NCBI RefSeq assembly: GCF_007748095.1
Contig: NZ_CP036287.1
Span: forward strand, 3,619,448-3,651,447
Direction: 5' to 3'
DNA from: Engelhardtia mirabilis
GTDB taxonomy: Bacteria; Planctomycetota; UBA1135; GCA-002686595
Length of the DNA: 32,000 nucleotides
Every line of letters starts with the position of its first letter. The first letter of the stretch is position 1. The notes under the pieces were generated by a model that saw nothing but the letters and a program-made list of their open reading frames with translations, made no database searches and was not told the DNA's origin. Made by a program: the position numbers and the translations under genes. Shown here one piece after another: positions 5,372 to 21,925 of the stretch.

Positions 5372-5439
5372 TCGACACCGACTGGCCGCCGGTGCCTGCA
5401 ATGGCAGTTCCGCCGGCGGCTCCAGCGGTGGCTCTCACG

Positions 5440-5467
5440 GCCGGCGAATCCGACGGGATTCGCCGGC
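5440..5467 (+). terminator. perfect 12-bp stem / GACG-loop hairpin downstream of glnN
   Basis: GCCGGCGAATCC-GACG-GGATTCGCCGGC, 70 nt after the glnN stop. Only a weak T-run follows (tgtgtccgtt). Confidence 0.4.
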
Positions 5468-5478
5468 TGTGTCCGTTC

Positions 5479-5516
5479 GGGCCGGATGTGCCCCTTTGGG
5501 CCGGCTGTGCCCCTTT
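5479..5516. repeat. 2 x 19-nt tandem direct repeat
   Basis: gggccggatgtgccccttt / gggccggctgtgccccttt, adjacent copies with 1 mismatch. Confidence 0.6.
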
Positions 5517-5693
5517 GGGAGAGCAAACCGTTCGAGGGCATGGACCGTTAGGAGCGCCGGATCCACTCGGAGCGACGGTCACTGACGGGCCGCCCTGGCC
5601 TCGATCCCTCCCCAGCTCGAACTCCAGTTCCGAGTCGGACACTCCGACATCGAGCTGAACCAACTCCGCGCCGACGTGTGTGGCTCGAGGGAC

Positions 5694-5752
5694 GCCGGAG
5701 GGTGGTAGCGGTGGACGGACTTGAACCGCCGACCCGCGAATCGTGATTCCGC
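5694..5752 (-). repeat. tRNA 3'-half remnant, att-like direct repeat copy A
   Basis: The minus strand reads GCGGA-ATCACGA-TTCGC-GGGTC-GGCGG-TTCAAGT-CCGTC-CACCGCT-A-CCA, i.e. anticodon arm, variable loop, T arm, acceptor 3' strand and CCA. No matching 5' acceptor strand (AGCGGTG) or D arm lies upstream. 5694-5738 is identical to 24215-24259. Confidence 0.7.
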
Positions 5753-6338
5753 GGACCGACTGGCCTGAGCGCGCTACGGCACAAACGGTTGGGTCGATCG
5801 CCGAGACGGACCTACCGCGCAGCTTGCCCGGGTAAGCGGGGCTCGAGGAGATCGTCGTGGCCTGGTCCGCCCTACCGGACGCGGTGCGTTCGGCGGTTCT
5901 GACGCTCATTCGGGCCGGGCGAGGGGCCCACGAGCGGCCCTCGCAGCCCGGGTCCTAACCGCGGAGCGACGGGGAGAGGCGCCCCCGCTGCTCGGCGGCG
6001 ACTCTCGCGAGGCAGCGCGCACTGGGCCGAGCGAGGGGCCGGACGGGAAGGCCGTGCGACCGGATCTCCCGCGCCAGTACCTGCCCGCCCCGTCGCCCGC
6101 CGATCGATCGAGGCGCGCCCGGCTGGCGGATCCACGTCCGCCAGAGCTGGGACCCGAGGAGGACGATTCGGGGCTCGACACGGCCCCGCGATCCGAGCCC
6201 AGTCGGGCCTGGCTGCGAGGTCGGGGGAGACGGGTGCCGCCATCGGATTCGGCAGAGGGGGGACGGCAGCAGGGGAGGTTCGCCACGTCGTCGAGCCCCG
6301 CGCGAGGCGGTTCCTCGCGGCCTCTGCCCCGATCCCCG

Positions 6339-7490
6339 ATGCAATCGAATCGTCAGATGCAGGCCACGCGGGACGCGCTCCCCGGTGGCCGCCCCGTACA
6401 GATCTTCTGGACTTGGCTCACCGGCCTCCCGGCCACGGGCGAGCTCCCCGCCATCCGCTGGACGCCCTGGACCCGCCTCGCGGTGTCCTTGCTCGTGCTC
6501 GGCAGCGGCGTGGCCGCCGCCACGTGGGCGACGTCCGGCCCCGCCGTCCAGTGGCTCGCCCTGGTTCCGGCCTGGCTCCTCACCACGGGTGCTCTGCGCC
6601 ACCTCTACATCGTCACCGGCCACTACGCGGCCCACAGCGACTTCTCCGGCTCGAAGCGGGTCGACCGCGCCCTGGCCGAGCTCTTCTCGACCCTGTCCTT
6701 CACCATCCCCTTCGACCTCTACCGCCGCGACCACGCCCGATTCCACCACTCGAGCCGGCTGGGGACGCCCCTGGACCCCGACGTCCGCTTCCTGTGGCGA
6801 TCGGGTTTCGGGCCCGGCCGGTCGATGGCCCAGCTCTGGCTGCGCCTCGCGACCAGCCTGATCTCGCCCGTCTACCACGGCCGCTACCTCTGGGGCCGGA
6901 TCCGCTCGAACCTCTGGGACGCGCCGCGATACCGCGTGGTGCTCGGCTGGGCCTACGTCGTGTCGACCGCTCTGGTCCTCGCTGCGACCGGCAGTGCGGC
7001 GACCTGGGCCCTGGTCTGGCTGGTGCCCGCCGTGCTCGGGTTCCAGGCCTCGGCCCTGCTCCAGTTCCTCTCCGAGCACCGTTGGTGGCTCGATCTCCCC
7101 GCGGGCAAGCTCCGGCTGGCGCGCCTGACCTTCGGACGCTTCCTGCTGCTCCCCTTCCCGGATCGCAACCTGACCGGACCCGCTCGACACACCGGCGCAC
7201 TCGCGTCGTTCTGGGCGAAGGTCCTCCTCCTCCAGCTGCCGGCTCGGATCGCGGTGCTCGTCGGGGACCTGCCCCAGCACGACCTGCACCACCGCCGCTC
7301 GGTCTACGACTGGGCCAACGCCGTGTTCGTGCGGCAGCGTGATGTCGAGGCCGGCAGCCCCGGCTTCCCCGAGCCCTACGGTGGGGTCGCCGGCACTCTC
7401 GCCGACCACGTGGGCGAGGTCTTCCGGAGCTGGGCCGAGCGAGGGCGTCCGACCGCGGAGGAACTGGCGGCTCTCGAGAGTGCCCAGTAG
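6339..7490 (+). CDS. membrane fatty-acid desaturase family protein
   Basis: Internal ATG of ORF 6054..7490 (alternative ATG at 6357). Several hydrophobic segments. Three His boxes: HYAAH, HARFHH and HDLHH. Confidence 0.8.
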   Translation: MQSNRQMQATRDALPGGRPVQIFWTWLTGLPATGELPAIRWTPWTRLAVSLLVLGSGVAAATWATSGPAVQWLALVPAWLLTTGALRHLYIVTGHYAAHSDFSGSKRVDRALAELFSTLSFTIPFDLYRRDHARFHHSSRLGTPLDPDVRFLWRSGFGPGRSMAQLWLRLATSLISPVYHGRYLWGRIRSNLWDAPRYRVVLGWAYVVSTALVLAATGSAATWALVWLVPAVLGFQASALLQFLSEHRWWLDLPAGKLRLARLTFGRFLLLPFPDRNLTGPARHTGALASFWAKVLLLQLPARIAVLVGDLPQHDLHHRRSVYDWANAVFVRQRDVEAGSPGFPEPYGGVAGTLADHVGEVFRSWAERGRPTAEELAALESAQ

Positions 7491-7510
7491 GCCCATGGGC
7501 CCAGCGGGCC

Positions 7511-7535
7511 GCCCGGGGCGAGTGAAGCCCCGGGC
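7511..7535 (+). terminator. 9-bp GC hairpin after the desaturase gene (no T tract)
   Basis: GCCCGGGGC-gagtgaa-GCCCCGGGC, 21 nt after the stop. Confidence 0.3.
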
Positions 7536-7586
7536 CGGCCCGGCCAACTCGCCGCACGATCCCGACTCCCGCTACCTTGAGCGGCG

Positions 7587-10500
7587 ATGAAGGACCCGGA
7601 GATCTGGCCTCCCTGGCTCGTCCGTATTCGCGCTCAGCAGGGAAACGAGGAGGGAGTCGGCGCTGGTCTGCTGATCGCCCCCGACCTCGTCCTCACCGCG
7701 TGGCACGTGGTGAACGTCGACGGCAAGTACCGTGGCACGGCGACGTCGGGCGGGACCCCGATGGCCGCGGCCAGGATCGACCTGGAGATCGGAGGCAAGC
7801 ACCGCCGGTCCATCCCGACCCCCCACCAGCGGCATGTGTCCTTCGCCGACAAGCCCGTCGACGACGAAGGCCAAGGCCGCGACTACGACCTCGCGCTGGT
7901 CCGGCTCGAAGAGGACCCGGTCCCGATCGATTCGGGCGACCTCCTTCCGATCGCCCGCGGTGTGCGACGACTCGAGTACCTGGCCCTCGGTGACCTCGGT
8001 CCGGACGAGCCCTTCCAGGTCGTAGGGTTTCCGGGTGGGAGCCTGCGCACGAAGCGTTTCGACGACGGTGCCCCCGACCCGGAGCGTGCCGGCGACGAGT
8101 TCTACGAGGTCCACCTGGGCCACCGAGTTCCCGAGGGCTACAGCGGCGGACCCATTCTGGCCGAGGTCGACGGCCAAGCTCTGTGCCTGGGGCTCGCGAG
8201 CCTCGGTGGAGCCACGGTCGGCTCTTCGGTCCAGACCTTCTCGGGAGCGATCATCGAGTTCCTCGATCAACAGAAGGTCCTTCGACGCGAAGGCGATCGG
8301 CTTCAGGTACCGACCGAGGACCTCGGCCGATTGCTCCTGCGCAGGCCACTCGAGTGCATCGCGGAACGCAACGACCGGCTTCCGCCGATCTTGTCCCGGT
8401 CCGCCCGCAAGGAGTGGAAGCTGCACGACCTGTTCCAGGAGCGGATCGTCGTGGACCGGGCAGCGACGGGCGGTGGCGACAGTGACGGTAACGCGAAGGC
8501 CGGTGGCCTGAGGGAGTTGGTGGATTGGACGCCCACCGTCGACTCGCCCCCGCGATGGGTCCTGCGAGGCGCGGGGGGAACCGGCAAGACGACTCTCCTG
8601 CGCCACCTCGCCTTCGAGCTGGCCCGCGAGGCGAATCAGGCCGGGGATGGCGCAGCGCTGCCACCGGTGGCCATCTTCCTGCGCCTGCCCCTCATCGTCC
8701 GTCGAGGGCCCGACTGGAGAGCGGCGCTGTTCGACGAGCTGAGAGATCGCGTGGATCGTGCTGCGATCCTCACGAGGGCGCTCAGCTCGCGCGTTTCCGA
8801 ACCCCGGATCCTGCTGCTGCTCGACGGGCTCGACGAGGTCGACGCCGGAGAAGTGACCGAGAACACCATCTCGCTCCTGCTTCAGGGCCTGCCCGATCAC
8901 CTCCCCGGAGTCGGCCTGGTCGTGGGCACTCGCCCGACGGGCTTCGACGACCGAGAGCCGGCGCTCACGCGACACTGGAACACCGCTTCGGTCGAGCCCC
9001 TGGATCGAGATCACCAGATCCGACTGGTCACCGAGGTGTCGAAGGCGATCGGCCGGCCTTGCTCAGAGAAGGCGACCGCCGCATGGGTCCATCAGATCAG
9101 TCGGGACGAGCGATTCGCCGACATCCGCGGCAACCCACTCTGGTTGACGCTGGCCGCCCTCGCCGTGGACCCGGAGACGGGGGCTCCACCGCCGTCCATG
9201 TCGGGCCTGCTCGCCAAGGCAGTCGACCACCTTGTAATGGGCATGCACCGCGGCGACCTCGAGCCCAGAGCTCGCCGCAGACGTACTCCCGTGGCAGGTC
9301 CGATCCCCAGCGCGGCCCGTCCGGTCTTGGGAACGATCGCACTCGCCATGACCCTCCAGCGTCAGGACGAACTCCGCTTCGACGACCTGGTCGAGGTCTG
9401 CAAGAACCTCCGCAAGAGAGCGGACCACGACGTCCGAGGCAGCGATGAACTCTGGGCTCGGTTGACGGAAGCCTGGGAATTGCTCGAGGACGATTCGGAG
9501 GAGAGCATCCTCGATCAGCTTTCGCTCGGCACCGATATCCTGAGCCCGCTCGAGGAGGACGGCGAACAAGTGGAAGACGGGGGATCCGACGCCGACGAGC
9601 TCTGGTCCTTCAGACATCGGACCGTGAAGGAGTTCCTCTCTGCCGATCAGCTCCGCCGCATGCTCGAAGGCGACGACGCTCCTCACGCCCAACAGCTGAT
9701 CGAGGCAGGCCTCGACGCCGACCTCGAGGGCTCGGTCCGGCACTGGGCCGGACCTGCGGCCCTTCTCGTCGAGATGCTCGACGACGCGACCGGGGCGGAA
9801 CGCGTGCTCCGGTGCCTCGCACCGAGGGATCCCGAGGCCGCTCGCCGCGCCCTGCTAGGAAGACCGAACGCCACGGTGGGCTCGATCCACATCGTCTTGG
9901 CGTCGCTCGAAAAGGAAGGGGACCGCGCGGCGGTGATCGAGCAGATCGATCGGCTGATCGAGGATCGTCAGGAGGCCTTCGATCTCCTGCGAAGCCTCGG
10001 CCTCGATCCCCGGATCCGAGCGGACCTGTACTTCGTCGACGAAGCACTGCTGGCCTTCGGAGTGCGGCACGAGGATCTCGCGGACGAGGCCGATGCCGCG
10101 AGACTGCGGATCTACGAGGAGCTGCCGGTCGAGCCGACGTGGCGTGCACCGTTCGAGCGGACGTTCGGGGATCCGGGGGTGCCCCTGTGGCGACCGGTAA
10201 CGCGGCACCTGACGTTCGGTTACGGCGATCGCGAGCTGGAGCAGGTGACGGAGCAGCCGTTCCAGATCTCGGCGGTTCCGGTGACGGAGGAGATGTACCG
10301 GATATTCGACCCGCACGATGATCAGCGGAAGTCGGAGCCAGGTCTCCTTCCGGCGCGCTCGGTCAGTTGGTGGGGTGCGATGGCCTTCTGTCGCTGGGCC
10401 GGAGCGAAGCTCGGTTTCGGTCTCGCCGGGAGCCTGCCGACAGAGCGTCAGTGGGAGTGTGCCGCGCGGGCCGGGACCGAGAGCGACTACTGGTTCGGCC

Positions 10501-10811
10501 CCGAGGCGCTCGACGAGCATGGGTGGTATGGGCAGAACTCTGAGTCTCGTGCCCACGATGTCGCGACTCGGCCGCCGAACGGCGACCGGCCCCAGCAGCC
10601 CAACCCGAACGGCCTTTTCGATGTCCACGGAAACGTCTGGGAGTGGTGTGTGGACCTCTTCGGCCGCGACGGCCCGAGGCGCGTGTTGCGCGGCGGTTGC
10701 TTCTGGTACGCGGCCGCGAGCTGTCGCTCGGGGTTCCGCTACTGGGACCACCCGGCGGACCGCGACCGGCTCCGGGGCTTCCGCGTCGTCCTCCCGGCCG
10801 ACCTTCGATGA
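7587..10811 (+). CDS. trypsin-like serine protease / NACHT (STAND) NTPase / FGE-sulfatase (C-type lectin fold) protein; DGR target 1
   Basis: ATG at 7587, 1074 aa. S1 triad motifs LTAWHV, DLALVRL and GYSGGP. Walker A GAGGTGKTT (about nt 8570-8600) and Walker B LLLLDGLDEV (about 8810-8840). NACHT-end FRHRTVKEFL. C-terminal SUMF1/FGE motifs RQWECAARAG, HGWY, NPNGLFDVHGNVWEWC and RVLRGG...GFRVVLP. VR1 lies at the 3' end. Confidence 0.92.
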   Translation: MKDPEIWPPWLVRIRAQQGNEEGVGAGLLIAPDLVLTAWHVVNVDGKYRGTATSGGTPMAAARIDLEIGGKHRRSIPTPHQRHVSFADKPVDDEGQGRDYDLALVRLEEDPVPIDSGDLLPIARGVRRLEYLALGDLGPDEPFQVVGFPGGSLRTKRFDDGAPDPERAGDEFYEVHLGHRVPEGYSGGPILAEVDGQALCLGLASLGGATVGSSVQTFSGAIIEFLDQQKVLRREGDRLQVPTEDLGRLLLRRPLECIAERNDRLPPILSRSARKEWKLHDLFQERIVVDRAATGGGDSDGNAKAGGLRELVDWTPTVDSPPRWVLRGAGGTGKTTLLRHLAFELAREANQAGDGAALPPVAIFLRLPLIVRRGPDWRAALFDELRDRVDRAAILTRALSSRVSEPRILLLLDGLDEVDAGEVTENTISLLLQGLPDHLPGVGLVVGTRPTGFDDREPALTRHWNTASVEPLDRDHQIRLVTEVSKAIGRPCSEKATAAWVHQISRDERFADIRGNPLWLTLAALAVDPETGAPPPSMSGLLAKAVDHLVMGMHRGDLEPRARRRRTPVAGPIPSAARPVLGTIALAMTLQRQDELRFDDLVEVCKNLRKRADHDVRGSDELWARLTEAWELLEDDSEESILDQLSLGTDILSPLEEDGEQVEDGGSDADELWSFRHRTVKEFLSADQLRRMLEGDDAPHAQQLIEAGLDADLEGSVRHWAGPAALLVEMLDDATGAERVLRCLAPRDPEAARRALLGRPNATVGSIHIVLASLEKEGDRAAVIEQIDRLIEDRQEAFDLLRSLGLDPRIRADLYFVDEALLAFGVRHEDLADEADAARLRIYEELPVEPTWRAPFERTFGDPGVPLWRPVTRHLTFGYGDRELEQVTEQPFQISAVPVTEEMYRIFDPHDDQRKSEPGLLPARSVSWWGAMAFCRWAGAKLGFGLAGSLPTERQWECAARAGTESDYWFGPEALDEHGWYGQNSESRAHDVATRPPNGDRPQQPNPNGLFDVHGNVWEWCVDLFGRDGPRRVLRGGCFWYAAASCRSGFRYWDHPADRDRLRGFRVVLPADLR
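10669..10803 (+). repeat. DGR variable repeat VR1
   Basis: 135 nt colinear with the TR. By hand alignment, 15 mismatches fall at TR adenines and 1 elsewhere. Encodes RVLRGGCFWYAAASCRSGFRYWDHPADRDRLRGFRVVLPAD. Confidence 0.9.
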
Positions 10812-10828
10812 TCGATCTTTGAGATGTG
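10805..10828 (+). repeat. post-VR conserved 24-nt element, copy 1
   Basis: TCGATGATCGATCTTTGAGATGTG directly after VR1. It contains the stop codon and is absent after the TR. Confidence 0.8.
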
Positions 10829-11136
10829 TTCGAATGTGGACCCGAACGGACGTTCCATTCCTCGCGCGGCCCTCGATGACCGAACAGAATTCCGGTCGTC
10901 CCGTTGTTCCGGTCGTCTGCGACCGATCGGTTCTCGAACGCCCCAGATCCCCGGGAACCGAGCCTCCGGTCCCCGCCCAGAAATGGCCCGTTGTGACCGG
11001 CCGACCCGACATCCGGAAGCAGGACGACCCTCAACGGCCATCAGGTTCCGGATCGGGCCTACCCCCTCCACACCCGAGGAGCGCGGCTCGGCCACCAAGG
11101 TCAGCCCGACGCCCTCGACCGCTCTGACGGCTTTCC

Positions 11137-12162
11137 TCAGACGCACAGGACGCTTCCCAACGCTCCTGCCCAACCCTCAGCAGGAATGGCCGGCCCGGTC
11201 CCACGAACGTACCTGGCCGCCCGTGCGCCCATCCGCCTCGCGTGCCTCGGGAGGGGTTCGATCCCGCTGCGGGTTACCAAGTGTCCGAGGGCATCGAGGC
11301 GACCGCTGCAGGATCGCGGGCGAGCCCCGGGGCGCTTCAATCGCAGACCGAGTCGCTCGTCGAGGTACCGCCCCACGTCGTCCCGCGCGGCCCGCAAGGC
11401 CGACCTAGAGTCACCGAACAGGAACAGATCGTCGACGTAGCGGACATAGCCGGGCACGCGAAGCTCGCGCGCGACATGGCTGTCGAGGCCCAGCGGCACA
11501 ACGTGGGCCGCCAAGACCTGGCTCGTGTACGCACCGATGGGCAGTCCCTCGCCGGGCGGCGGCCAATCGGGATCCAGTCGAGCGAAGGCTCGTACGTGAC
11601 GATCGTCGTAGAGGCCCCGCCCGGACTCCAGGATCCGATCGACGACCTGCAGGAACCGCTCGTCGCGGATCCGGCGACGGAGCAGGGACCGGACCAGCTC
11701 GATCCGGATGCTCGGGAAGTAGCTTCGAACGTCCAGATGCACGAACCACGCATGACGGCGGACCAGCTCCAGGATCCGGAGCAACGCGCGATGGGTTCCC
11801 CGTCCGGTGCGGCAGGCGTAGTCCGCGTCCGATAGGGATCGCTCGAGCACAGCCTCGACCAGGCGCGCGACCGCCGTGTGCACCACTCGATCCAGGACCG
11901 ATGCTCGTGCGATGACCCGGGGCTTGGGATCGTGCAGGAACAAGAGATCGAAGGCCCCGTGCCGCCAACGGGCGTCCACGAGCGCGGCACGCAACTCGCG
12001 AAGCTCGGATTCCCGGCGGAACAGGAAGGTCGCGACATCCGCCCGCCGCCGCTTCCCCCGGACGGTGACCCGCGCAGCCTCGTCGAGCCGGTCCTCGTCG
12101 ACCAGCTGCTCGAAGAGGCCGCCCGTGGTCCTGGTCAAGGTGCCCCTCCGGACGCTCGCCAC
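11137..12162 (-). CDS. DGR-type reverse transcriptase
   Basis: 341 aa with a GTG start. RT motifs HLDVRSYFPSI, LPIGAYTSQVLAAH (the DGR-specific IGxxxSQ) and YVRYVDDLFLF (YxDD). Lies 124 nt downstream of the TR. Confidence 0.92.
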   Translation of the reverse strand: MASVRRGTLTRTTGGLFEQLVDEDRLDEAARVTVRGKRRRADVATFLFRRESELRELRAALVDARWRHGAFDLLFLHDPKPRVIARASVLDRVVHTAVARLVEAVLERSLSDADYACRTGRGTHRALLRILELVRRHAWFVHLDVRSYFPSIRIELVRSLLRRRIRDERFLQVVDRILESGRGLYDDRHVRAFARLDPDWPPPGEGLPIGAYTSQVLAAHVVPLGLDSHVARELRVPGYVRYVDDLFLFGDSRSALRAARDDVGRYLDERLGLRLKRPGARPRSCSGRLDALGHLVTRSGIEPLPRHARRMGARAARYVRGTGPAIPAEGWAGALGSVLCV

Positions 12163-12286
12163 CGGCGGTGACTACGGGAACGGAGGGGCGAGGTCGGACG
12201 AGCGGGCCGGAAGGTCCGGCTGCGACGTCCGCGGGGAGGGGCCTGATCGCGGATCCGCTCGCCTCGCGAGCTCCGTCCGCGGGCTG

Positions 12287-12421
12287 GGTCGGCCGGGAGG
12301 ACGACGCGGAAGCCCTGGTTCCGGTTGCGGTTCGCCGGGTGGTTCCTGTTCCGGTACCCCGAGCGACAGTTCGCGGCCGTGTTCCAGTAGCTACCGCCGC
12401 GCATCACGCGCCTCGGGCCGT
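12287..12421 (-). repeat. DGR template repeat (TR)
   Basis: A 135-nt non-genic copy of the target 3' ends. It reads RVMRGGSYWNTAANCRSGYRNRNHPANRNRNQGFRVVLPAD, with seven AAC codons and about 25 adenines. It sits between avd and the RT and lacks the 24-nt post-VR element. Confidence 0.9.
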
Positions 12422-12795
12422 GGGGCCCCTGCCCCTGCACCGGACTTGGAGAATCGCCGGGAGCTGCGGCCCCATCCACCGAGCATGCGGCCGATCGTGT
12501 CGAGCTCCGCCGAAGCGAACCGCATCCGTCGCTTCGTCAGGTAGCCCAGCGACTCGGCGAGCCGCAGCAGCACCCGGAGGCGGACCACACCTCGATCGGC
12601 GGCGCGACGATGGTCGTCCCTCTCGGCCGGGAAGGTCAATGCTATCGAGACATCCGCGACGAGGTCCTGGACGGCGTCGGCGACCCGTCCGGCCGAGCAC
12701 ATGGCTTCGGGTTGCGGCCATCGCGCGACCTCGGCCAAGAGCCAGGTCGCGAGGTCATGGCTGCGTACGTAGAGAGGCGCGCGTCGCCAAGTCAC
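12391..12795 (-). CDS. avd: accessory variability determinant (Avd, four-helix-bundle family)
   Basis: 134 aa with a GTG start overlapping the upstream stop (GTGA). PLYVRSHDLATWLL at the N-terminus and LDTIGRMLGGW near the C-terminus are Avd hallmarks. The 3' end overlaps the TR. Confidence 0.8.
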   Translation of the reverse strand: MTWRRAPLYVRSHDLATWLLAEVARWPQPEAMCSAGRVADAVQDLVADVSIALTFPAERDDHRRAADRGVVRLRVLLRLAESLGYLTKRRMRFASAELDTIGRMLGGWGRSSRRFSKSGAGAGAPRPEARDARR

Positions 12796-13382
12796 CGCTC
12801 GCGCCTCCCGAGCTTCTCGCTCCAGCGGATGAGGCCCCCCAAGGTCGGAAGGACCTCCGACTCAATCCGCGCGGCCCAGGCGAGCTGCTCCCCCTCCGGC
12901 TCGGCGTCCTGGATCAACAGGAGGCCCACGCAACGGCTCATCAAGCACCGGGCGCGGCGGAGGGCCTCGCCCTTACGATCCGCGTCGTAGGCGTGGACGC
13001 CCTCGCAGACGGCCAGCAGTCCGGACAGGAGCGCGCGCTCCGCAGCGGACGACGATGATCCTGTCGATGCCGCGGTTGCTCGCATAGCCGCGAGAACCGC
13101 GCGCCCACGACGAAAGCACTCGACGTCCTCCACGGATCGCCGACGGTCACCGTGCCGCACGGCCGCCCTTGAGGGAAGGGCCTCTTCGACCGCCTCGCGC
13201 ACATCGTCGGCTCGTCGTTGGAGCGACTGACGCTGATCCTCGGTCAAGGGCAGGCTCTCGCGCCGGATGCGCCAGGACTTGCCATGCTTGGCCCCCCGCA
13301 ACTCACCCCGTGCGAGCCGTGCACGGACGGCGCGCGGGCTCACCCCGAGAACGACGGCAGCTTCGCGAACGCTCAGTTCCAT
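12792..13382 (-). CDS. excisionase/MerR-type HTH protein with helical C-terminal domain (DGR-associated)
   Basis: MELSVREAAVVLGVSPRAVRARLARGELRGAKHGKSWRI is a typical N-terminal HTH. The C-terminus ...LPTLGGLIRWSEKL faintly echoes the Avd C-terminus. Alternative ATG starts at 13505 and 13517. Confidence 0.65.
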   Translation of the reverse strand: MELSVREAAVVLGVSPRAVRARLARGELRGAKHGKSWRIRRESLPLTEDQRQSLQRRADDVREAVEEALPSRAAVRHGDRRRSVEDVECFRRGRAVLAAMRATAASTGSSSSAAERALLSGLLAVCEGVHAYDADRKGEALRRARCLMSRCVGLLLIQDAEPEGEQLAWAARIESEVLPTLGGLIRWSEKLGRRER

Positions 13383-13732
13383 CCCGGTGGATCGAACCGG
13401 CTGGATGGATCGAGGTTCCGATCCAGAAGACGATCTCGTGGACGTCGTGGAACTCGTGACCTCCTCGAGGATGCCGATGACCGGATCGAGGGACGAAGTG
13501 GCCATCGACGGCCGCATGAGTAGCCATCAATGGCCGCAACTGGCCGTCGCGACGTGTGAGCGGTCAGTGCGGGAGGTCGAACCGAGTCCAATCGGAAACG
13601 ACACCGGCACGCGACGGCCGAACGGCGCAGGGGTCGCCTCGGTCTCGGGATCCCACCGGAACTGGGTCCGGCCACGTGGTGCCGAGAATCGGCACTGCGC
13701 GTCCCCTCGGCGACGCTCGGGCCGCTCGAAGA

Positions 13733-13756
13733 CACATCTCAAAGATCGATCATCGA
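13733..13756 (-). repeat. post-VR conserved 24-nt element, copy 2
   Basis: The reverse complement reads TCGATGATCGATCTTTGAGATGTG. It contains the stop codon of target 2. Confidence 0.8.
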
Positions 13757-16700
13757 AGCTCGGCCGGGAGGACGAGGCGGAAGCCCAGGTTCCGGTTGCG
13801 GCCCGCCGGGTGGCTCCTGCTCCGGTACCCCGAGCGACAGCCCGCGGCCGTGTCCCAGTAGCTACCGCCGCGCAACACGCGCCACGGGCCGTCGCGGTCG
13901 AAGAGGTCCAGACACCACTCCCAAACGTTCCCGTGGACATCGAGAAGGCCGTTCGGGTTGGGCTGCTGGGGCCGGTCGCCGTTCGGCGGTCGAGTCGCGA
14001 CATCGTGGGCACGAGACTCAGAGTTCTGCTCATACCACCCATGCTCGTCGAGCGCCTCGGGGCTGAACCAGTAGTCACCCTCGGTCCCGGCCCGCGCGGC
14101 ACACTCCCACTGGCGCTCGGTCGGCAGGCTCCCGGCGAGACCGAAACCGAGCTTCGCTCCGGCCCAGCGACAGTAGGCCATCGCACACCACCAACTGACC
14201 GAGCGCGCCGGAAGGAGACCTGGCTCCGACTTCCGCTGATCATCGTGCGGGTCGAAGACCCGGTACATCTCCTCCGTCACCGGAACTGCCGAGATCTGGA
14301 ACGGCTGCTCCGTCACCTGCTCCAGCTCGCGATCGCCGTAACCGAACGTCAGGTGCCGCGTTACCGGTCGCCACAGGGGCACCCCCGGATCCCCGAACGT
14401 CCGCTCGAACGGCGCACGCCACGTCGGCTCGACCGGCAGCTCCTCGTAGATCCGCAGTCTCGCGGCATCGGCCTCGTCCGCGAGATCCTCGTGCCGCACT
14501 CCGAAGGCCAACAGTGCTTCGTCGACGAAGTACAGGTCCGCTCGGATCCGGGGGGCGAGGCCGAGGCTTCGCAGGAGATCCAAGGTCTCCATACGATCCT
14601 CGATCAAGTGCTCTACCTGAGAGATCACGGCCCCCCGATCCTCCTCCTCCTCGAGCGATGAAAGGACGATCATGACAGCATTCGTCGAAACCGCTCGACT
14701 CGCCATCAACGCGCGTCTCGAGATCGCCGGCGCATCCTCGAGGCTCTCGAGCAGGACTTCGACTTCCCCTTCGACGAGTCGTTCCGCCAGCATGCCGAGC
14801 GGCTCGGACCAGAAACGCGCGACGTCGTCCTCTCCATTGTCGCTCTCAGCGTCACCATCCATGCTCCCCTGTTCTGCGCCAACCAGCTCGAGCCAGTCGC
14901 ACCAAGAACGCAATCCGGCCGGACCCTGCGAACTCAACCAGCCTTCATTCGTGCTCAACCTGAGCGCACTCAGGATGCTTCGCGCATTGTCAGCCAGACG
15001 AACGTCGTCAGCATCGATCTGCGAGAGCGCTCGGTCGAACCGCTGCAGAAGTGCACGACGCACAGCCCCAGCGGCCGACCGCGCGCGAGCAAGAACATCG
15101 TCCTGCCCCCCTGCCGCCGTCCACCTCTCCCAGAGCCATTCCGACGTCAGAAACTCGAGCGTCGACCGGTGCCAGAAGCGCCAGTCCTCGTCAATGTCAT
15201 TTCCGCGTCGTCGGATCCTCCGCTCTGGCGGTGTCAGGATCGAATTGCGTTCGAGCCACCTGAGGACGTCATTCGGAGCGCAACGTTCCTTCAGATCCAG
15301 GAGGTCCCGGCGAAGGTCGGTCCATGGCGTCGGAGCGCTTCCATCAGCGCCGCGCTCCGAGTCCTTCAGATCCTCGAGCCATGTCTCCATGACGCTGCGA
15401 GGGACCTGTACCAGGCCCTCCGAAGACATCCGGTGGGCCAACCATCGGAGCACGGGCCGGACGGACCGTGGAAGCGCCTCGGGCTGCACCGAGTCGTCGT
15501 CCGCCACTTCGTGGATCTGCCGCTGATCGCGGCGGTGCTTGCCCGCCTCCAGTCGACGGAGGATCGCGTCGAGCAGGTCGACCCGCGAGCCTGGCTCACG
15601 GTCCTCCTCGAAGATCACGATGGCTGCCATGGTCAACCACAGCGGGTTCCCGCGTTCCTCGTCGTAGCGGGCATCGACTTGGATCCGGTCGACCCAGTCC
15701 TCGAGTGCCGCCGCGTCCATCGTCGGCTTCGCGGGGCCGCCGAACTTCCGGTGCTGCCCCACCAGCTTGACGAGCAATTCCTTCTGCCGATCGGCACCCA
15801 GAGGTTCGACGCTCGCCAAGCTCCACGCTTTGAACTGGGCGCTCCGTTCAAGGTAGCGTGACGGTCTGGTTCCGAGCGCCACGGGCGTTCTGGGCAGCTC
15901 GCGCGGGATCGAAGCGAGCAGGGCCCCCACGTTCGGCCGCTCGGCCTTGCTCACCTCGTCGTAGCCGTCCAGCAACAGCACCAGCTCACCGCGAGGATCT
16001 TGCGCGCCGAGCAGCTCCCCCGTGTAGTGGTCGACCTTTTTCGTGACGTATTGGACGAGGTCTTCGAACGGACGAGTGCCGACGTTCTTCAGGTCCGGTA
16101 GACGGACGAGCAAAGCGACCCTGTCGCCTTCGTCGATGGGACGATCTGAGCCGGTCGCGAGGCGAGCGTCCGCGAGCCGCTTGGCCAGCTGGCGAAGGAT
16201 CGTCGTCTTGCCCGTTCCGGCTTCACCGCGAAGGATGATCCGGGGTTGATCCGATTCCGCGGAGGGTGAGTTCGAGCCGGGCCCGGACGGGACCTCACTT
16301 GCCGGTGACTCCTCGTCGAACGCATCCTCGAGCCCGAGGTGTCGCGCGAGGGACGTCTGTCCATGCACCGCGGCGCGAACCGCCTCCCCGTCCCGCGGAA
16401 CCTCCAAGGTGACGCGATCGACGAAGACGTCGTCGAGGCTGAGATCGGGTGCCCATGGGAGGACGTCGCACTCGGCCGAGAGCCGACCGAGAAACGGTTT
16501 CAACAGCAGTGAGCGAAGATCGGGTGAGCTCGGTAGCGCGAGCGATTCGCCCCCGCCGTCCCGCTCCTCGATCACCCGCCGAGCGTTGTCGAGGAACGGT
16601 CCGACGGTGCCTGCCAGCAGGTAGCCCGAGAACGGGTGATTGGACCCGCCGACGATGGTGATCCCGACCCAGTGGAGATCCGATCCGACACGCAGCAGCA

Positions 16701-17310
16701 GGGGCCCTCCACTGAAGCCGCCGTGGACCCTCCCGTGTTCGGCCCCAAGATCACGAGCCTCCCGATGGAGGTGGTCAGGGTCCCAGCCCTCGAGCCGTGC
16801 GCTCTGGTCGTCTGGGCTCTCGACGCCGTCGGGGAAGCCCCAGATCGCGAACGACGAACCGCGGGCGACCAGCGCTCGGGCCTCGAGCTCACCAAGACCA
16901 CGGGTCAGCGACGCAACGGCATCCCCCTCGGCCAGGCCAGGAACCCTCAGCAGTGCCAGGTCCACCGAGCGCCCGACCCCAGAGAGGTCGCCCGACGCGA
17001 ACAGGACGTCGGCCGACGACGGGTCGTACGGACCGATCGAGTGAATGGACGGTTCGGAGTCCAGTGCCGTGGGGTGATCGGCAAGTGTCACCACGACGCC
17101 CTTGGCAGGATTCGGCGACTCGGACCGGCCACCACTGAACGTCCCGGTCCGGCTGAGAACGTGCCAGGCGGTCAGAACCCATCCCGGCGCGACGATCACG
17201 CCGGAACCGAAGTTGTCATCAGTCGTCGTCTTGCCGTTCTTGGTCTTCTCGACCCGGCACTGGATGCGAACCAGGGATGGCACCGCCGAAGGCCAATCGA
17301 GATCAGGCAA
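13750..17310 (-). CDS. trypsin-like serine protease / NACHT (STAND) NTPase / FGE-sulfatase protein; DGR target 2 (cis target upstream of avd-TR-RT)
   Basis: 1186 aa. The apparent start is TTG at 17308-17310; the GTG at 17281-17283 is the alternative. Triad motifs LTAWHV, DLALLRV and GFSGGP. Walker A GEAGTGKTT (about nt 16195-16230) and Walker B LVLLLDGYDEV. WRFWHRSTLEFL. The C-terminal FGE domain is nearly identical to that of target 1. Confidence 0.9.
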   Translation of the reverse strand: MPDLDWPSAVPSLVRIQCRVEKTKNGKTTTDDNFGSGVIVAPGWVLTAWHVLSRTGTFSGGRSESPNPAKGVVVTLADHPTALDSEPSIHSIGPYDPSSADVLFASGDLSGVGRSVDLALLRVPGLAEGDAVASLTRGLGELEARALVARGSSFAIWGFPDGVESPDDQSARLEGWDPDHLHREARDLGAEHGRVHGGFSGGPLLLRVGSDLHWVGITIVGGSNHPFSGYLLAGTVGPFLDNARRVIEERDGGGESLALPSSPDLRSLLLKPFLGRLSAECDVLPWAPDLSLDDVFVDRVTLEVPRDGEAVRAAVHGQTSLARHLGLEDAFDEESPASEVPSGPGSNSPSAESDQPRIILRGEAGTGKTTILRQLAKRLADARLATGSDRPIDEGDRVALLVRLPDLKNVGTRPFEDLVQYVTKKVDHYTGELLGAQDPRGELVLLLDGYDEVSKAERPNVGALLASIPRELPRTPVALGTRPSRYLERSAQFKAWSLASVEPLGADRQKELLVKLVGQHRKFGGPAKPTMDAAALEDWVDRIQVDARYDEERGNPLWLTMAAIVIFEEDREPGSRVDLLDAILRRLEAGKHRRDQRQIHEVADDDSVQPEALPRSVRPVLRWLAHRMSSEGLVQVPRSVMETWLEDLKDSERGADGSAPTPWTDLRRDLLDLKERCAPNDVLRWLERNSILTPPERRIRRRGNDIDEDWRFWHRSTLEFLTSEWLWERWTAAGGQDDVLARARSAAGAVRRALLQRFDRALSQIDADDVRLADNARSILSALRLSTNEGWLSSQGPAGLRSWCDWLELVGAEQGSMDGDAESDNGEDDVARFWSEPLGMLAERLVEGEVEVLLESLEDAPAISRRALMASRAVSTNAVMIVLSSLEEEEDRGAVISQVEHLIEDRMETLDLLRSLGLAPRIRADLYFVDEALLAFGVRHEDLADEADAARLRIYEELPVEPTWRAPFERTFGDPGVPLWRPVTRHLTFGYGDRELEQVTEQPFQISAVPVTEEMYRVFDPHDDQRKSEPGLLPARSVSWWCAMAYCRWAGAKLGFGLAGSLPTERQWECAARAGTEGDYWFSPEALDEHGWYEQNSESRAHDVATRPPNGDRPQQPNPNGLLDVHGNVWEWCLDLFDRDGPWRVLRGGSYWDTAAGCRSGYRSRSHPAGRNRNLGFRLVLPAELR
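13758..13892 (-). repeat. DGR variable repeat VR2
   Basis: 135 nt colinear with the TR. 10 mismatches at TR adenines and 2 non-A mismatches, both in the last 25 nt. Encodes RVLRGGSYWDTAAGCRSGYRSRSHPAGRNRNLGFRLVLPAE. Confidence 0.9.
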
Positions 17311-17313
17311 GCT

Positions 17314-18651
17314 TCACGCCCCCGGGATGCGGTCGAGGATCTCGCGCGCCCATTGTTTCGAGGTCACCGATCCGTGCTCCCCAACGTGCTCCAGCCCGGC
17401 AATCCAACCGGCACGATGGGACTCCGGCACCTCGCTCCAGTTGTCCGCATCGGCCAGAACGTGAGCCAGTGCCAGCCCGCACAGCTGGACCTCGAACTCC
17501 TCGTCGTAGAGCAGGTGGGAGAACGCCGCGTCATCGGGCAGCTCGAGTTTCTCGCGAAACTTCTCGAGTAGCTCCTCACTGCCGACCGCACCGCCGCCGT
17601 CGACGACGACGATCTCACCGTGGCCATCGGAGCTACCGCGCTGAACCGCCGTTCCCCTGGCAGGACCTTGATCCTGAATAACATCGGTCGCCCTGAGTCC
17701 TCTGCGGTTGAACCGGTTCAGCGACTCGATGAAGATCGATGCAGCGAGCATCGCAACCGGCTTCCCGCTCCAGGATTCGCCGCGCGGACCGTTTTCGAGC
17801 GAACGAGGTCCCGACAACGCTTTCCAAACGGCCGCTTCGAGCAACGCCGGGGCCTTCTCGATCGTGGCGTCCGAGATGAAGATGCTCTTCGACGCGCCCG
17901 CCTTCCGAGGTCGGCGCGCGTAGCCGATGTCGATGACTCGAGCCGTCACCAGCCGCAGGACAGTCTCGAGCAGCTTACTCCCAAGGATCGTCTGCACCAC
18001 GAGGCCGGGACCGCTCTCAGGGATCGGGCACAGACCCCAGCGCATCATCGGATTCTTTACGACCTCGTCGTCGTCCGCGCCCTCCTTCTTCCTCTGCTCC
18101 CCGGTCCAGAAAGTGCGGCCGGTCTCGATGTCCGGCAGCGCACGCCGCGGTCCACGAAGGACCGCCCGTAGCTGGGACCCGACAGATTCAAAGGGGTCGA
18201 ACTTCAGAGCCTCTACGGCCACCCTCCAGTCGTCACTCGACCGCGCCGCCCGCTGGAACTGGTCCATCCGCTTCTTCTCGGACTTCTGGCTTCCGTATCG
18301 GAACAGGCTCTCGTCGATCCAATCCTCGGAGTAGGGGTGGAGTGCGAGCAACAGCGCGTGACCGCGAACTCGATCGTCACTGGTTCGGGCCGACAGCGTC
18401 CACTCTCCCCGATCCAGTTCCTCGGGGAACGGATAGGGCTTCGCGTGGTACTCCATCTCGACGTCGTCCACGAAGACGTAGTTGCCATCGGCCGCCTCGT
18501 CGTAGGCGATGAGCGTCGGGGAGATCGGATGCCGCGAGGCGCTCTCGCTGACGGGCTCCATGGGGAACTCCGTCATCCCCCCGGGGGGCGGATCGGGCGG
18601 CTCGGGCGGATCTCCGGCTTCGTACAGCGGACGGACGTCGAACTCGCTCAT
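17314..18651 (-). CDS. hypothetical protein, translationally coupled partner of DGR target 2
   Basis: ATG at 18649-18651 (MSEFDVRPLYE...), 445 aa; the longest ORF extends to 18738. High GC3 and no motif I recognise. Its stop at 17314-17316 lies one codon before the target 2 start, in the same frame. Confidence 0.7.
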   Translation of the reverse strand: MSEFDVRPLYEAGDPPEPPDPPPGGMTEFPMEPVSESASRHPISPTLIAYDEAADGNYVFVDDVEMEYHAKPYPFPEELDRGEWTLSARTSDDRVRGHALLLALHPYSEDWIDESLFRYGSQKSEKKRMDQFQRAARSSDDWRVAVEALKFDPFESVGSQLRAVLRGPRRALPDIETGRTFWTGEQRKKEGADDDEVVKNPMMRWGLCPIPESGPGLVVQTILGSKLLETVLRLVTARVIDIGYARRPRKAGASKSIFISDATIEKAPALLEAAVWKALSGPRSLENGPRGESWSGKPVAMLAASIFIESLNRFNRRGLRATDVIQDQGPARGTAVQRGSSDGHGEIVVVDGGGAVGSEELLEKFREKLELPDDAAFSHLLYDEEFEVQLCGLALAHVLADADNWSEVPESHRAGWIAGLEHVGEHGSVTSKQWAREILDRIPGA

Positions 18652-18810
18652 GGCACTCGGAAACGATCGGGTGATTCGGATCGGCCGGGTCCACAGGCAA
18701 CCTCCTCCCGGCTCCGTGGTCGAACCTAGCGCCGCCAACGGGGTCCGGGAAGGCCCTAGCCGGCGTCGACACGCCGCTTGTCAGGCTGCTAGTCTCCCGA
18801 GACCCGGCCC

Positions 18811-21800
18811 ATGCTCCCGAGCACAGACAGATCTCGACCCTACGTCCTGCGTGTCACCTCCGACGACGGGAACCCGGCGGCGGGGATCCTGGTCTCGGAG
18901 AACTATGCGGTGACCTGCTGGCACGTCGCCAACGGCAGTGGAAAGTTCAGCGAGAAGGTCCCCAACTCCCGTGAGGCGGCATGGGGGCTCTGCGCCGGCG
19001 GTCGGCCGGCCGAGGTCGTGGCCTGGGGCGACCTCCCTGGGATCGGCTATGAGGTAGACGTGGCTCTGCTGAAGCTCGAGGGTGCGCCAGCGAGTCTCGA
19101 GAGTGCCGACCTTGCCCTGGCGTACGACTCCCGACTCTTCGACCAGCTCCTCGACAGTGTTTCCTACCTCGAGGTGGAGGGGTTCCCTCGCCACTCGCCG
19201 ACCTCGCACGTCGAATCCTGCCGGCCACACAAGGGATCGGGATCGTCGAGTACGAGCCGGGGTGGCCAGGTCACCGAGTTCGGCCTCTTCGCCCGCGTCC
19301 ACGAGGGAGTCAGCGGCGGACCCGTGGTCGCCGGACGTGGAGGCGAGGAGGTCTGCGTCGGGATGGCCTGTCTCGGCAGCTCGAGGTCGCTGCAGATGGC
19401 GGCCGTGTCGTCGGGTGAACTGCTGGCGCTCCTCGAGCACCACTTCGACGGAGAGCTTCCCCATGCGGTCCGAACCAGGCCCCTCGACGACTGGCTCATC
19501 GACCATGGCGTGATCGAAACGCGCGGGTCCTATCTCCGTGCACTGAGGGCTCGGGTCGAAGAGGACCACGACTTGCTCAGGATGCTCGGGGTCGATGACC
19601 TCGCCGACGAGTTCTTCGATCGGGTCTACGTCCGACTCGAGGTCGGAGTCAGTCCCTCGTTCGCGCAGCGTCTAGCCGATCTAGGCGATGAAGAAGACGC
19701 CAGCATTCCCCCGTCTGGTGTCCGCCTAGACCAACTGCTGTCGATCCCGCCTGCCCGGTTCGGCATCGCCGGGCCGCGATTCGTCCTGCGCGGCGAACCA
19801 GGCTCGGGCAAGACCACGATCCTGCGCCAGCTCGCCTGGTCCCTCGCCGGCGACGACGACGCCGCCTGGACGCCGGTAAGGATCGGGCTCCCCGACTTCG
19901 CGCGCTGGAGAGCGGGGCAGAATCGAAAGGGCGACGCCTGGGACAAGCTGCTCGACTACCTCGAGGAGCAGCAGGACATTGCCGATGCTCGCCGCGAGGC
20001 GCTCGTGGCCGAGCGCGAGCATGGGCGTCTGCTGCTGCTCCTCGACGGGCTCGACGAGGTCCGCGGCGAGTTGAGAACCACCACTCGCTCCTGGCTCGCG
20101 AACCTCTCCGAACAGATGGGCTCGTCCGCCATCGTCGTGGCGACGCGGACGATTCCGTATCGCAAGCCCGCGGGCGGCTACGTGGAGGCGGACGTCGAGC
20201 CCATGGGAATCGCTCAACAGAAGAAGTTCCTGAGCGCCTGGATCGGCGACGAGGGGGCGGCCGAGGATCACATCAAGCGCTGGGCCGACCTCCCCCACAG
20301 CCGATTGTCGCTTCTGGCCGGGAACCCGCTCTGGTTGACGTACTTCGGCTTGCTCTTGCGCCGTGGCGAGACGCCCGATGAGTCTCGCAGCGCACTCTAC
20401 GAGCAGGTCCTCGAGCTGCTCCTCTCCGGTGAGTTCCAGGATCCTCCGAAGAAGAACCCGAATCCGGCCGTGATGCGCGCTGGGCTCGTGTTCCTGGCGG
20501 TCCAGATGAGCAAGAAGGGCGAGACAGCAGTTCGCAAGTCGGACCTCGACGCCCTATTCCAAGAGCAAGGCGTCGAGACGGACGTCGCCGTCCGCGCCGT
20601 GCTCAACGAATGGAGCCGACGCCCTGACGATTTCCTCCAGGACGTGCAGGCGATCACGGGGATCATCGGTCGATACGGCGAGAAGGAGGGGAGGAACTGG
20701 CGTTTCTGGCACGGCCAGCTTCGTGAGGTCCTGGTCATGATTTGGCTGCGGAGCCTCACCCGCGACGAGCAGCTCGCCGAGGCCGCCGCGCTGGCGGAGG
20801 ATCACCTCGGCTTCTTCGCCGAACCGTTCGCGCTCCTGGTCGGCACGGATGAGCTGGCCGACAAGGACGAGATGATCGAGCGGCTCGTCGAGCACAATCC
20901 GGTCCTGGGGCGCAGAGTGCTGGCCAGTGCTACAGGAGTGTCGCCGTCGACGGTCGAGAAGGTGCTGGGGCTCGATTCGTCGGACCCTGAGCGTCGCGGC
21001 GAGATTCTCCTGGACCTGCCGAACATCCTGGGTCGCGGGGAGGGGGCACGGGCCGCAACGATTCAACTCGTCGAACGGCTGTGGATGGCGAGCCGGTCCA
21101 GCGAGGAGGAGATGTGGGCGGACTGCTACCACCTGGACGAGCTACTCGTCGCGCTCGAGGAGGAACCGGGTGAGCTAGTGTCCACTCGTAGAGCCCTGTA
21201 CTTCCGGCGCTTTGGACAACCGGACCGTCCGACCTTGAAGGAGTTGTTTCCGCCGATCCACGGGCTCACCCCCTTTCCTCGGATCGATCCCGGTTCATTC
21301 GCAATGGGTGACGGGGACGCTCCCAGTCGCCAGCAGGTGAAGATCCCAACCCCATTCCGGCTCGGGGCAACTCCCGTCACCGAGAGCCAGTTCAGCTTGA
21401 TGTCTGGCAGGGAGATCGAGACGAGTAGCCGTAAGCCGAAGGGCGAGATCAACTTCTTTGGAGCCATGCTGTACAGCAGGTTCCTCGGTTGGGCGATGGG
21501 ATCGGATCAGCCGGGCGACCTGCCGACCGAGGCTCAGTGGGAGTACGCAGCGCGAGCAGGCAACGAGGGTGACTACTGGTTCAGCCCTGGGGCCCTGGAC
21601 GACCACGGCTGGTACGAAGGCAACTCGGGAGGTCGGGTCCACGACGTCGCCACTCGCCCCCCGGATGGCGAGGAGCCGCAGCAGCCGAATCCGAACGGCC
21701 TGTTCGACGTGCACGGGAATGTTTGGGAGTGGTGCCAGGACCTTCTCGGCGGCGCCGGCCCGTGGCGCGTGATGCGCGGCGGTAGCTTCTGGGACTCGGC

Positions 21801-21912
21801 CGCGAACTGTCGCTCGGGGTACCGGATCAGGAACCACCCGGCGAGCCGCCTCTGGGACCTGGGCTTCCGCGTCGTCCTCCCGGCCGACCGGAGCTTGGCC
21901 ATCGATGATTGA
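18811..21912 (+). CDS. trypsin-like serine protease / NACHT (STAND) NTPase / FGE-sulfatase protein; DGR target 3
   Basis: ATG at 18811, 1033 aa. Triad motifs VTCWHV, DVALLKL and GVSGGP. Walker A GEPGSGKTT (about nt 19795-19825) and Walker B LLLLLDGLDEV. C-terminal FGE motifs AQWEYAARAG, HGWY and NPNGLFDVHGNVWEWC. VR3 lies at the 3' end. Confidence 0.9.
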   Translation: MLPSTDRSRPYVLRVTSDDGNPAAGILVSENYAVTCWHVANGSGKFSEKVPNSREAAWGLCAGGRPAEVVAWGDLPGIGYEVDVALLKLEGAPASLESADLALAYDSRLFDQLLDSVSYLEVEGFPRHSPTSHVESCRPHKGSGSSSTSRGGQVTEFGLFARVHEGVSGGPVVAGRGGEEVCVGMACLGSSRSLQMAAVSSGELLALLEHHFDGELPHAVRTRPLDDWLIDHGVIETRGSYLRALRARVEEDHDLLRMLGVDDLADEFFDRVYVRLEVGVSPSFAQRLADLGDEEDASIPPSGVRLDQLLSIPPARFGIAGPRFVLRGEPGSGKTTILRQLAWSLAGDDDAAWTPVRIGLPDFARWRAGQNRKGDAWDKLLDYLEEQQDIADARREALVAEREHGRLLLLLDGLDEVRGELRTTTRSWLANLSEQMGSSAIVVATRTIPYRKPAGGYVEADVEPMGIAQQKKFLSAWIGDEGAAEDHIKRWADLPHSRLSLLAGNPLWLTYFGLLLRRGETPDESRSALYEQVLELLLSGEFQDPPKKNPNPAVMRAGLVFLAVQMSKKGETAVRKSDLDALFQEQGVETDVAVRAVLNEWSRRPDDFLQDVQAITGIIGRYGEKEGRNWRFWHGQLREVLVMIWLRSLTRDEQLAEAAALAEDHLGFFAEPFALLVGTDELADKDEMIERLVEHNPVLGRRVLASATGVSPSTVEKVLGLDSSDPERRGEILLDLPNILGRGEGARAATIQLVERLWMASRSSEEEMWADCYHLDELLVALEEEPGELVSTRRALYFRRFGQPDRPTLKELFPPIHGLTPFPRIDPGSFAMGDGDAPSRQQVKIPTPFRLGATPVTESQFSLMSGREIETSSRKPKGEINFFGAMLYSRFLGWAMGSDQPGDLPTEAQWEYAARAGNEGDYWFSPGALDDHGWYEGNSGGRVHDVATRPPDGEEPQQPNPNGLFDVHGNVWEWCQDLLGGAGPWRVMRGGSFWDSAANCRSGYRIRNHPASRLWDLGFRVVLPADRSLAIDD
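21755..21889 (+). repeat. DGR variable repeat VR3
   Basis: 135 nt colinear with the TR. 11 mismatches at TR adenines (counting the boundary base) and 1 non-A mismatch. Encodes RVMRGGSFWDSAANCRSGYRIRNHPASRLWDLGFRVVLPAD. Confidence 0.9.
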
Positions 21913-21925
21913 TCTTTGAGATGTG
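21902..21925 (+). repeat. post-VR conserved 24-nt element, copy 3
   Basis: TCGATGATTGATCTTTGAGATGTG, 1 mismatch to copies 1 and 2. It is displaced 12 nt from the VR3 end by an insertion and contains the stop codon. Confidence 0.8.

Follow-up and report, generated by a model that had tools for sequence, protein, structure and literature searches.

A lectin-fold module recently copied at the DNA level forms inverted arms around a diversity-generating retroelement cassette in Engelhardtia mirabilis

How do two target genes of one diversity-generating retroelement (DGR), which are only distantly similar over most of their length, come to carry nearly the same 3' end in opposite orientation on either side of the retroelement cassette? 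The question is raised by a 32,000-nucleotide stretch of the Engelhardtia mirabilis genome (contig NZ_CP036287.1, positions 3,619,448 to 3,651,447; hereafter the window, with coordinates counted from its first nucleotide), for which an earlier note made from the sequence alone had described an 848-bp inverted repeat at 9981-10828 and 13733-14580. A self-comparison repeat search of the 32-kb window and an ungapped base-by-base register of both arms bore this repeat out and extended it slightly. The arms are 939 nucleotides (nt) long, 93% complementary and spaced by 2902 nt, and a 939-nt repeat within 32 kb is far beyond chance. The features concerned are the following (RT, reverse transcriptase; TR, template repeat; VR, variable repeat; HTH, helix-turn-helix; CLec, C-type lectin).

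7587-10811, plus strand: target 1 (T1), 1074 amino acids, with Trypsin_2, NACHT and FGE-sulfatase (CLec fold) domains; converges on the RT gene
9891-10829, plus strand: left arm of the inverted repeat, made up of the T1 3' end (amino acids ~769-1074) and 18 nt past the stop codon; near-identical core from ~9981
10662-10803, plus strand: VR1; 15/25 TR adenine positions substituted, 1 non-adenine mismatch in the core
10830-13731, no strand assigned: unique inter-arm segment of 2902 nt with RT-TR-Avd-HTH, which would flip upon a crossover between the arms
11137-12162, minus strand: RT (RVT_1, E = 4.6e-10; YVDD motif)
12287-12428, minus strand: TR, between avd and RT, 125 nt upstream of the RT start
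12391-12795, minus strand: Avd-like accessory protein; bAvd and DivGenRetAVD matches below the curated cut-offs
12792-13517, minus strand: HTH_17/excisionase-family DNA-binding gene, directly upstream of avd
13732-14670, minus strand: right arm of the inverted repeat, made up of the T2 3' end and 18 nt past the stop codon; near-identical core ends at ~14580
13750-17310, minus strand: target 2 (T2), 1186 amino acids, with Trypsin_2, NACHT and FGE-sulfatase domains; upstream of the cassette and co-oriented with it
13758-13899, minus strand: VR2; 10/25 TR adenine positions substituted, 2 non-adenine mismatches near the 3' end

Profile hits to RVT_1, Avd-like and HTH_17 families agreed with the claim that the arms enclose RT-TR-avd-HTH. 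In the ungapped register the arms differed at 66 of 939 nt, and the core at 9981-10828 had 41 mismatches (95.2% identity), divided into 20 in the 681 nt outside the VR (9981-10661, 97.1% identity) and 21 within the VR (10662-10803). The codon differences outside the VR comprised 9 that change the amino acid, close to the ten or so noted earlier, and 8 that are synonymous; the arms have thus diverged slightly since copying. The computed alignment was also not confined to the VR, the near-identity extending about 680-770 nt past it as had been described, and the upstream parts of the two genes were indeed much more diverged (~30% amino-acid identity above ~9890). At the inner side the identity covers a further 18 nt after each stop codon and breaks off abruptly at 10829/13732, where the inner end of each arm is the end of an AT-rich motif that follows the VR. 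The divergence along the arm was uneven, with 1.4% in 9981-10273 and 4.1% in 10274-10661 (Fisher's Exact Test, p = 0.04), and reached ~28% at the outer edge (9891-9980, a zone of 72% identity). Such a mosaic hints at more than one conversion tract but is not proof of it.

It is very improbable that the repeat is an artefact of assembly, that is, that the arms are collapsed or chimeric or that the 2.9-kb segment between them was oriented arbitrarily. Among relatives, short-read contigs commonly break off within the arm that follows RT (L059, L060 and L061), as would be expected if arms of this kind confuse assemblers, but the 66 differences and a longest identical run of 125 bp indicate that the arms in the window are not collapsed, the record of the RT protein places it on a 6.9-Mb contig, and the same layout was found in more than 20 independent assemblies. 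Moreover, either orientation yields the same architecture, and a mis-join inside the arms would leave the conclusions unchanged.

The nature of the copying was read from a protein-guided codon alignment of T1 with T2, along which third-codon-position identity was calculated in successive intervals. Upstream of amino acid ~778 the amino-acid identity was 0.17-0.65 and the third-position identity 0.13-0.61 (about 0.4, saturated). In the interval from amino acid 778 the third-position identity was intermediate (0.70), and from amino acid 808 to the end it was 0.90-1.00. The identity profile along the two genes, which the earlier note had proposed, thus located the boundary as a third-position step at amino acids 778-808, with silent-site identity in the arms far above that in the rest of the gene, as is expected of gene conversion. 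Given silent-site identities of 0.90-1.00 in the arms, neither selection on the protein nor constraint from the TR can explain the repeat, and the DNA must have been copied recently. Recent DNA-level copying is the only reading that fits the third-position data.

An account without recombination would hold that the C-terminal domain is conserved for compatibility with one TR, which rewrites the last 45 residues. VR positions that are not adenine in the TR are expected to be reset by each retrohoming, and even in comparisons between loci the C-termini show slightly higher conservation than the N-termini, both as this account would have it. It is already contradicted, however, by the rise in third-position identity from about 0.4 upstream to 0.90-1.00 in the arms; in addition, the match between the copies runs on beyond the stop codon, by 18 nt here and by 237 nt in a related locus (L057), the TR homology covers only about 134-142 nt, and orthologues from different loci are about equally similar in their C- and N-terminal parts. 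We therefore regard this account as extremely improbable. A long DGR cDNA was also considered as the homogeniser of the arms and was rejected because of the same limited length of TR homology (about 134-142 nt).

Relatives of the locus were collected by RT similarity and amounted to about 25 loci with RTs 45-66% identical to that of the window, in metagenome-assembled genomes labelled Planctomycetota, Acidobacteriota and Myxococcota, among others. The closest RT was 61% identical in the genome and metagenome scans and 66% identical in the protein database, and no external protein more than 45% identical to the arm module was found in the protein search. The recurrent layout in these relatives was a co-oriented target, HTH, Avd, TR, RT and a convergent target. 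This bracket was seen in L003, L008-L013, L015-L018, L021, L023, L025, L026, L030-L032, L038, L042, L051, L052 and L057, and the inverted arms of the relatives were about 150-930 nt long at 74-93% identity. The arm identity of the window was matched only by L012 (93% over 714 nt), and the window belongs to the most recent conversion cases seen.

Within a locus the paired targets were far more similar in their C-terminal than in their N-terminal parts: 90% over the last 260 amino acids against about 30% over 764 amino acids for T1 and T2, 72% against no detectable similarity in L009, 74% against 47% in L008, 73% against 36% in L011 and 65% against 39% in L016. Between loci, the C- and N-terminal identities of orthologues were about equal (80/77, 71/80, 50/53, 43/43 and 39/45%). 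A best-match analysis gave discordant results for the two parts, the converted part grouping by genome and the unconverted part by orthology. The N-terminus of L009_up was closest to L007_dn (50%) and its C-terminus to its own partner (72%); likewise, the N-terminus of a third target in the window (T3) was closest to L015/L017_dn and its C-terminus to T1/T2. In L057 the arms reach 237 nt into the non-coding 3' flank, which argues for copying at the DNA level and not for selection at the protein level. Taken together, the excess of C-terminal similarity within but not between loci, the discordant best matches and the L057 flank indicate repeated replacement of the C-terminal module by gene conversion or an equivalent recombination.

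The effectors fused to these modules varied, with SIR2-NACHT paired with TIR-NACHT in L042, a DUF4062-NACHT pair in L051, a protein-kinase pair in L057 and a TIR-kinase with a CLec-only protein in L052. Since the same bracket occurs with very different effectors, the layout is independent of effector type. The short-read contigs L059, L060 and L061 (corresponding to L002) all belong to one relative and stop a little past the arm of the convergent target, 660-945 nt into that gene; such arms, or VR heterogeneity, may break assemblies.

Judged from their upstream parts, T1 and T2 appear to be otherwise ancient paralogues, and, with the relatives taken into account, gene conversion or module replacement is a better explanation than duplication of a whole gene. 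It is quite probable that the two genes are ancient paralogues served by one DGR in which the last 285-305 codons and the post-VR element were recently overwritten by recurrent, non-reciprocal gene conversion. The unit encoded by the arms spans the whole FGE/C-type-lectin-fold domain and a short linker (Pfam match from amino acid 879; alignment with TvpA), and its best relative of solved structure is the Treponema DGR variable protein TvpA (2Y3C).

Mechanistically, homologous recombination between the convergent T1 and T2 would overwrite the last 285-305 codons together with the short post-VR element, and would result in the same lectin-fold module in opposite orientation around HTH-Avd-TR-RT. 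The VR, its GC-rich end resembling an initiation of mutagenic homing (IMH) site and the post-VR motif would all have to stay matched to the single TR, and might in this way constitute a permanent homology anchor. Such an anchor could seed homologous recombination, from which conversion tracts of variable length would extend over the lectin-fold module and, in some relatives, reach the 3' flank. Homogenisation would then recur instead of being a single event and would keep the scaffold compatible with the TR-encoded residues, and the arms would also permit occasional RecA-type inversion of 10830-13731.

A single recent event, in which the C-terminal module and the 3' element were duplicated in inverted orientation or replaced the end of a paralogue and have drifted since, is unlikely but deserves the most weight among the alternatives. 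The 20 non-VR differences between the arms are a mixture of silent and replacement changes as in simple divergence, and duplication with recombination has been described in another genome (PMC10907252), but a single event accounts poorly for the uneven divergence along the arm and the intermediate outer zone of 72% identity. Furthermore, many distant relatives are homogenised within the locus at varied identity (74-93%), which points to independent events in many lineages.

Several observations weigh against recurrent conversion. A single replacement followed by drift fits the window almost equally well. The identity gradient is opposite to that expected from spread out of the VR, the part farthest from the VR being the most identical, and for this reason the anchor idea is held loosely. 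Extended arms are also not universal, the inverted repeat in L042 and L052 being little more than the VR, and no inversion was seen anywhere in the window or the relatives sampled. The earlier suggestion of a recent duplication or ongoing conversion of the lectin-fold sensor therefore stands in part: the DNA was copied recently, the copy includes the whole lectin-fold domain and conversion is favoured over whole-gene duplication, while ongoing exchange is surmised from one genome and its distant relatives.

Inversion of 10830-13731 by a RecA-type crossover is plausible from the structure of the repeat. The longest identical runs between the arms are 125, 97 and 69 bp, and runs of this length should suffice for RecA-dependent crossing over. 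The proposal that inversion would swap which target is the cis target proved weak, given that the layout is mirror-symmetric and inversion gives the same architecture. A cis position is apparently not needed for targeting either, since T3, outside the bracket, also has adenine-specific VR changes. A crossover upstream of the VRs would instead invert the donor cassette and make T1 and T2 trade VR alleles, leaving the architecture unchanged.

Relatives with several samples (P0019, P0023, P0034 and P0008) showed a single orientation, which says little about the window because their arms are short. Specifically, one orientation was found in six sample contigs of one relative and two of another (L042-L047 and L057-L058), with arms of only 150-474 nt. 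The targets L009_up (5255-8602, plus strand) and L007_dn (11185-14604, minus strand) are full-length orthologues (50% over 1053 amino acids; RTs 66% identical) that occupy opposite sides of the cassette in the two genomes, and their partner targets are not orthologous. This switch of sides is equally consistent with an evolutionary cassette inversion and with partner turnover. GC skew in the window tracks gene strand, and replication direction is not readable from it.

A programmed switch, with a site-specific recombinase that inverts the cassette in the manner of shufflons or phase-variable promoters, would also place inverted repeats on both sides of a segment, and an excisionase-family HTH gene does lie inside. 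Profile searches, on the other hand, found no integrase, invertase or transposase family in or beside the cassette, the arms are long coding sequence of variable length among relatives and not short conserved crossover sites, and the HTH gene partners avd also where the inverted repeat barely exceeds the VR. A switch of this type is accordingly a very remote prospect.

The third target, its VR and the post-VR motif are located as follows.

18811-21912, plus strand: T3, 1033 amino acids, with Trypsin_2, NACHT and FGE-sulfatase domains; C-terminus matches the arms over ~370 nt (79-82%)
21748-21889, plus strand: VR3; 11/25 TR adenine positions substituted
10807-10828 (plus strand), 13733-13754 (minus strand) and 21904-21925 (plus strand): AT-rich post-VR motif GATGATCGATCTTTGAGATGTG, after VR1, VR2 and VR3, respectively

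That T3 shares only the core of the domain was confirmed (300-369 nt at 79-82%). When the differences between T1 and T2 were polarised with T3 as outgroup, 8 were shared with T2 and 2 with T1, which was not significant (p = 0.11). The locus has the features of a DGR, with an RT gene beside a TR, adenine-specific TR/VR pairs and a VR at the 3' end of each C-type-lectin/FGE-fold target. Almost all differences between the TR and VR1-3 were at TR adenines, with 1-2 other mismatches each, and the adenine-specific changes indicate that all three are genuine DGR targets. The non-adenine mismatches are at 10739, 13776 (which pairs with 10785) and 13759 (which pairs with 10802). The two in the GC-rich 3' end of VR2 (G to C and C to G) have not been reset by retrohoming; VR2 may not have been fully rewritten recently, or cDNA integration may stop upstream of them.

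The Avd-like protein scored 36.4 bits with bAvd (cut-off 40) and 51.1 bits with DivGenRetAVD (cut-off 80; E = 1.4e-13), both below threshold, and the position of its gene between HTH and TR is kept in relatives. In 25 related loci, as in the window, avd is immediately preceded by an HTH_17 gene, and the cassette of this clade is therefore HTH-Avd-TR-RT.

The post-VR motif has the form GATC-N5/6-GATC-WTWGAGAGTGT and sits just after the stop codon. With 38% GC it contrasts with the genome (69% GC), and it is absent after the TR. It was also found in about 30 VR 3' flanks of L005-L038, where the RTs are only 45-66% identical to that of the window, and its sequence was not found as text in the literature search. 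A GC-rich hairpin downstream of the VRs was not detected, folding z-scores of 0.05-1.2 being no better than those of shuffled sequences; a GC-rich inverted repeat downstream of the IMH is present in only 34% of DGRs and hence not obligatory (PMC5758913). The motif may be the target-recognition element of this DGR clade, replacing the hairpin, and one idea is that the HTH_17 protein binds it.

All three targets have the order of signal transduction ATPases with numerous domains (STAND), with an N-terminal effector, a central NACHT P-loop NTPase and a C-terminal sensor domain, the latter matching FGE-sulfatase in Pfam with E = 1e-25 to 1e-31. PADLOC returned weak P-loop matches only and assigned no defence system to the targets. 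An open reading frame of 474 amino acids (17314-18738, minus strand) abuts the T2 start and is divergent from T3; it had no Pfam, NCBIfam or PADLOC match and may encode a partner of the sensor proteins.

In the literature search, no publication connected the targets of a DGR with cassette inversion or with bracketing inverted repeats that undergo concerted evolution. Inverted paralogues that evolve in concert through gene conversion are familiar from tufA/tufB of Salmonella. Human Y-chromosome palindromes (PMC3723533) and the yeast flip/flop region (PMC9731477) are likewise inverted copies kept near-identical by non-reciprocal recombination, as proposed for the window, with rare inversions of the spacer as a by-product. 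In these three systems whole genes or large arms are involved, whereas in the window only a C-terminal module is homogenised, the two paralogues look unrelated elsewhere, and a retroelement would keep rewriting part of the arm.

That CLec modules are duplicated and recombined in DGR loci has been published before, and the window extends this known theme. CLec C-termini duplicated and recombined onto divergent N-termini were described in Thiohalocapsa PB-PSB1 and proposed more generally (PMC10907252), similar events are reported for cyanobacteria (PMC7517822), NACHT/STAND-CLec targets are known (PMC10907252; PMC7159879), and about 13% of DGRs have two-target cassettes (PMC5758913). As in the window, where the accessory protein is Avd-like, one RT/Avd/TR serves several targets in the Thiohalocapsa PB-PSB1 clade (PMC10907252) and in conflict systems (PMC7159879), and these targets combine an N-terminal effector with a NACHT NTPase and, at the C-terminus, an FGE-type lectin fold that holds the VR. 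The window differs from them in several respects: its two copies lie in inverted orientation immediately around the cassette, neither transposons nor MITE-like (miniature inverted-repeat transposable element) repeats were seen at its boundaries, the effector, a trypsin-like protease, is part of the same polypeptide chain, and the cassette includes an HTH_17 gene.

The cyanobacterial DGR paralogues (PMC7517822), in the part of the study consulted, also show recent intragenomic CLec duplication on different N-terminal domains and several targets per TR; unlike those in the window they are mostly dispersed ('remote') and linked to kinases or orthocaspases, and a bracketing inverted repeat or a potential for inversion is not discussed in that part. 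With the DGR of Bordetella phage BPP-1 the window shares an adenine-specific TR/VR pair, RT, a GC-rich VR end common to VR and TR and a distinct element just 3' of the VR, and it has an Avd-like gene where BPP-1 has Avd. BPP-1 has a single target, a phage tail-fibre gene, against three cellular targets here, and the window has an AT-rich GATC-containing motif in place of a significant GC-rich hairpin after the VR, as well as the extra HTH gene.

The window is an unusually clean example of a DGR locus that keeps several sensors compatible with one template, with a lectin-fold module copied between otherwise anciently diverged genes and a convergent layout in about 25 distant relatives. If homogenisation is ongoing and the arms permit inversion, variation would arise in three layers, namely point hypermutation, conversion of the module and swapping of alleles between effectors. 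A 2026 study found DGR editing to be RecA-independent and to gain 7.6- to 44-fold in efficiency when the target is co-directional with replication (PMC12875486). Given this preference of retrohoming for one replication direction, an inverted pair would always hold one fast- and one slow-diversifying copy. The bracket would thus be a natural system for differential diversification of paired targets, the two copies of which should diversify at different rates. A more speculative and rather doubtful extension is that the convergent two-target bracket is a selected design of a distinct HTH-Avd-TR-RT clade. It would combine one fast- and one slow-diversifying copy of the same sensor module, with recombination between the arms (conversion or inversion) moving VR variants between two effector chassis. 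The AT-rich GATC motif, perhaps with the HTH protein bound to it, would then mark targets for recognition where BPP-1 uses a hairpin.

Scans of the window with Rfam, ARAGORN and promoter and terminator predictors gave nothing relevant, and no intact tRNA was found by ARAGORN or Rfam. A 59-nt direct repeat (95%) at 5694-5752 and 24215-24273 resembles a tRNA 3' half on the minus strand (T arm, acceptor stem and CCA), and its two copies bracket 18.5 kb that hold the whole DGR and all three targets. No integrase was found for this segment; placed in this way, the repeats may be remnants of att sites of integrated elements. To the right of the second copy, at 26043-29360, are DUF1376 and C-5 cytosine DNA methylase genes, a sign that the DGR island may adjoin a prophage or another mobile element.

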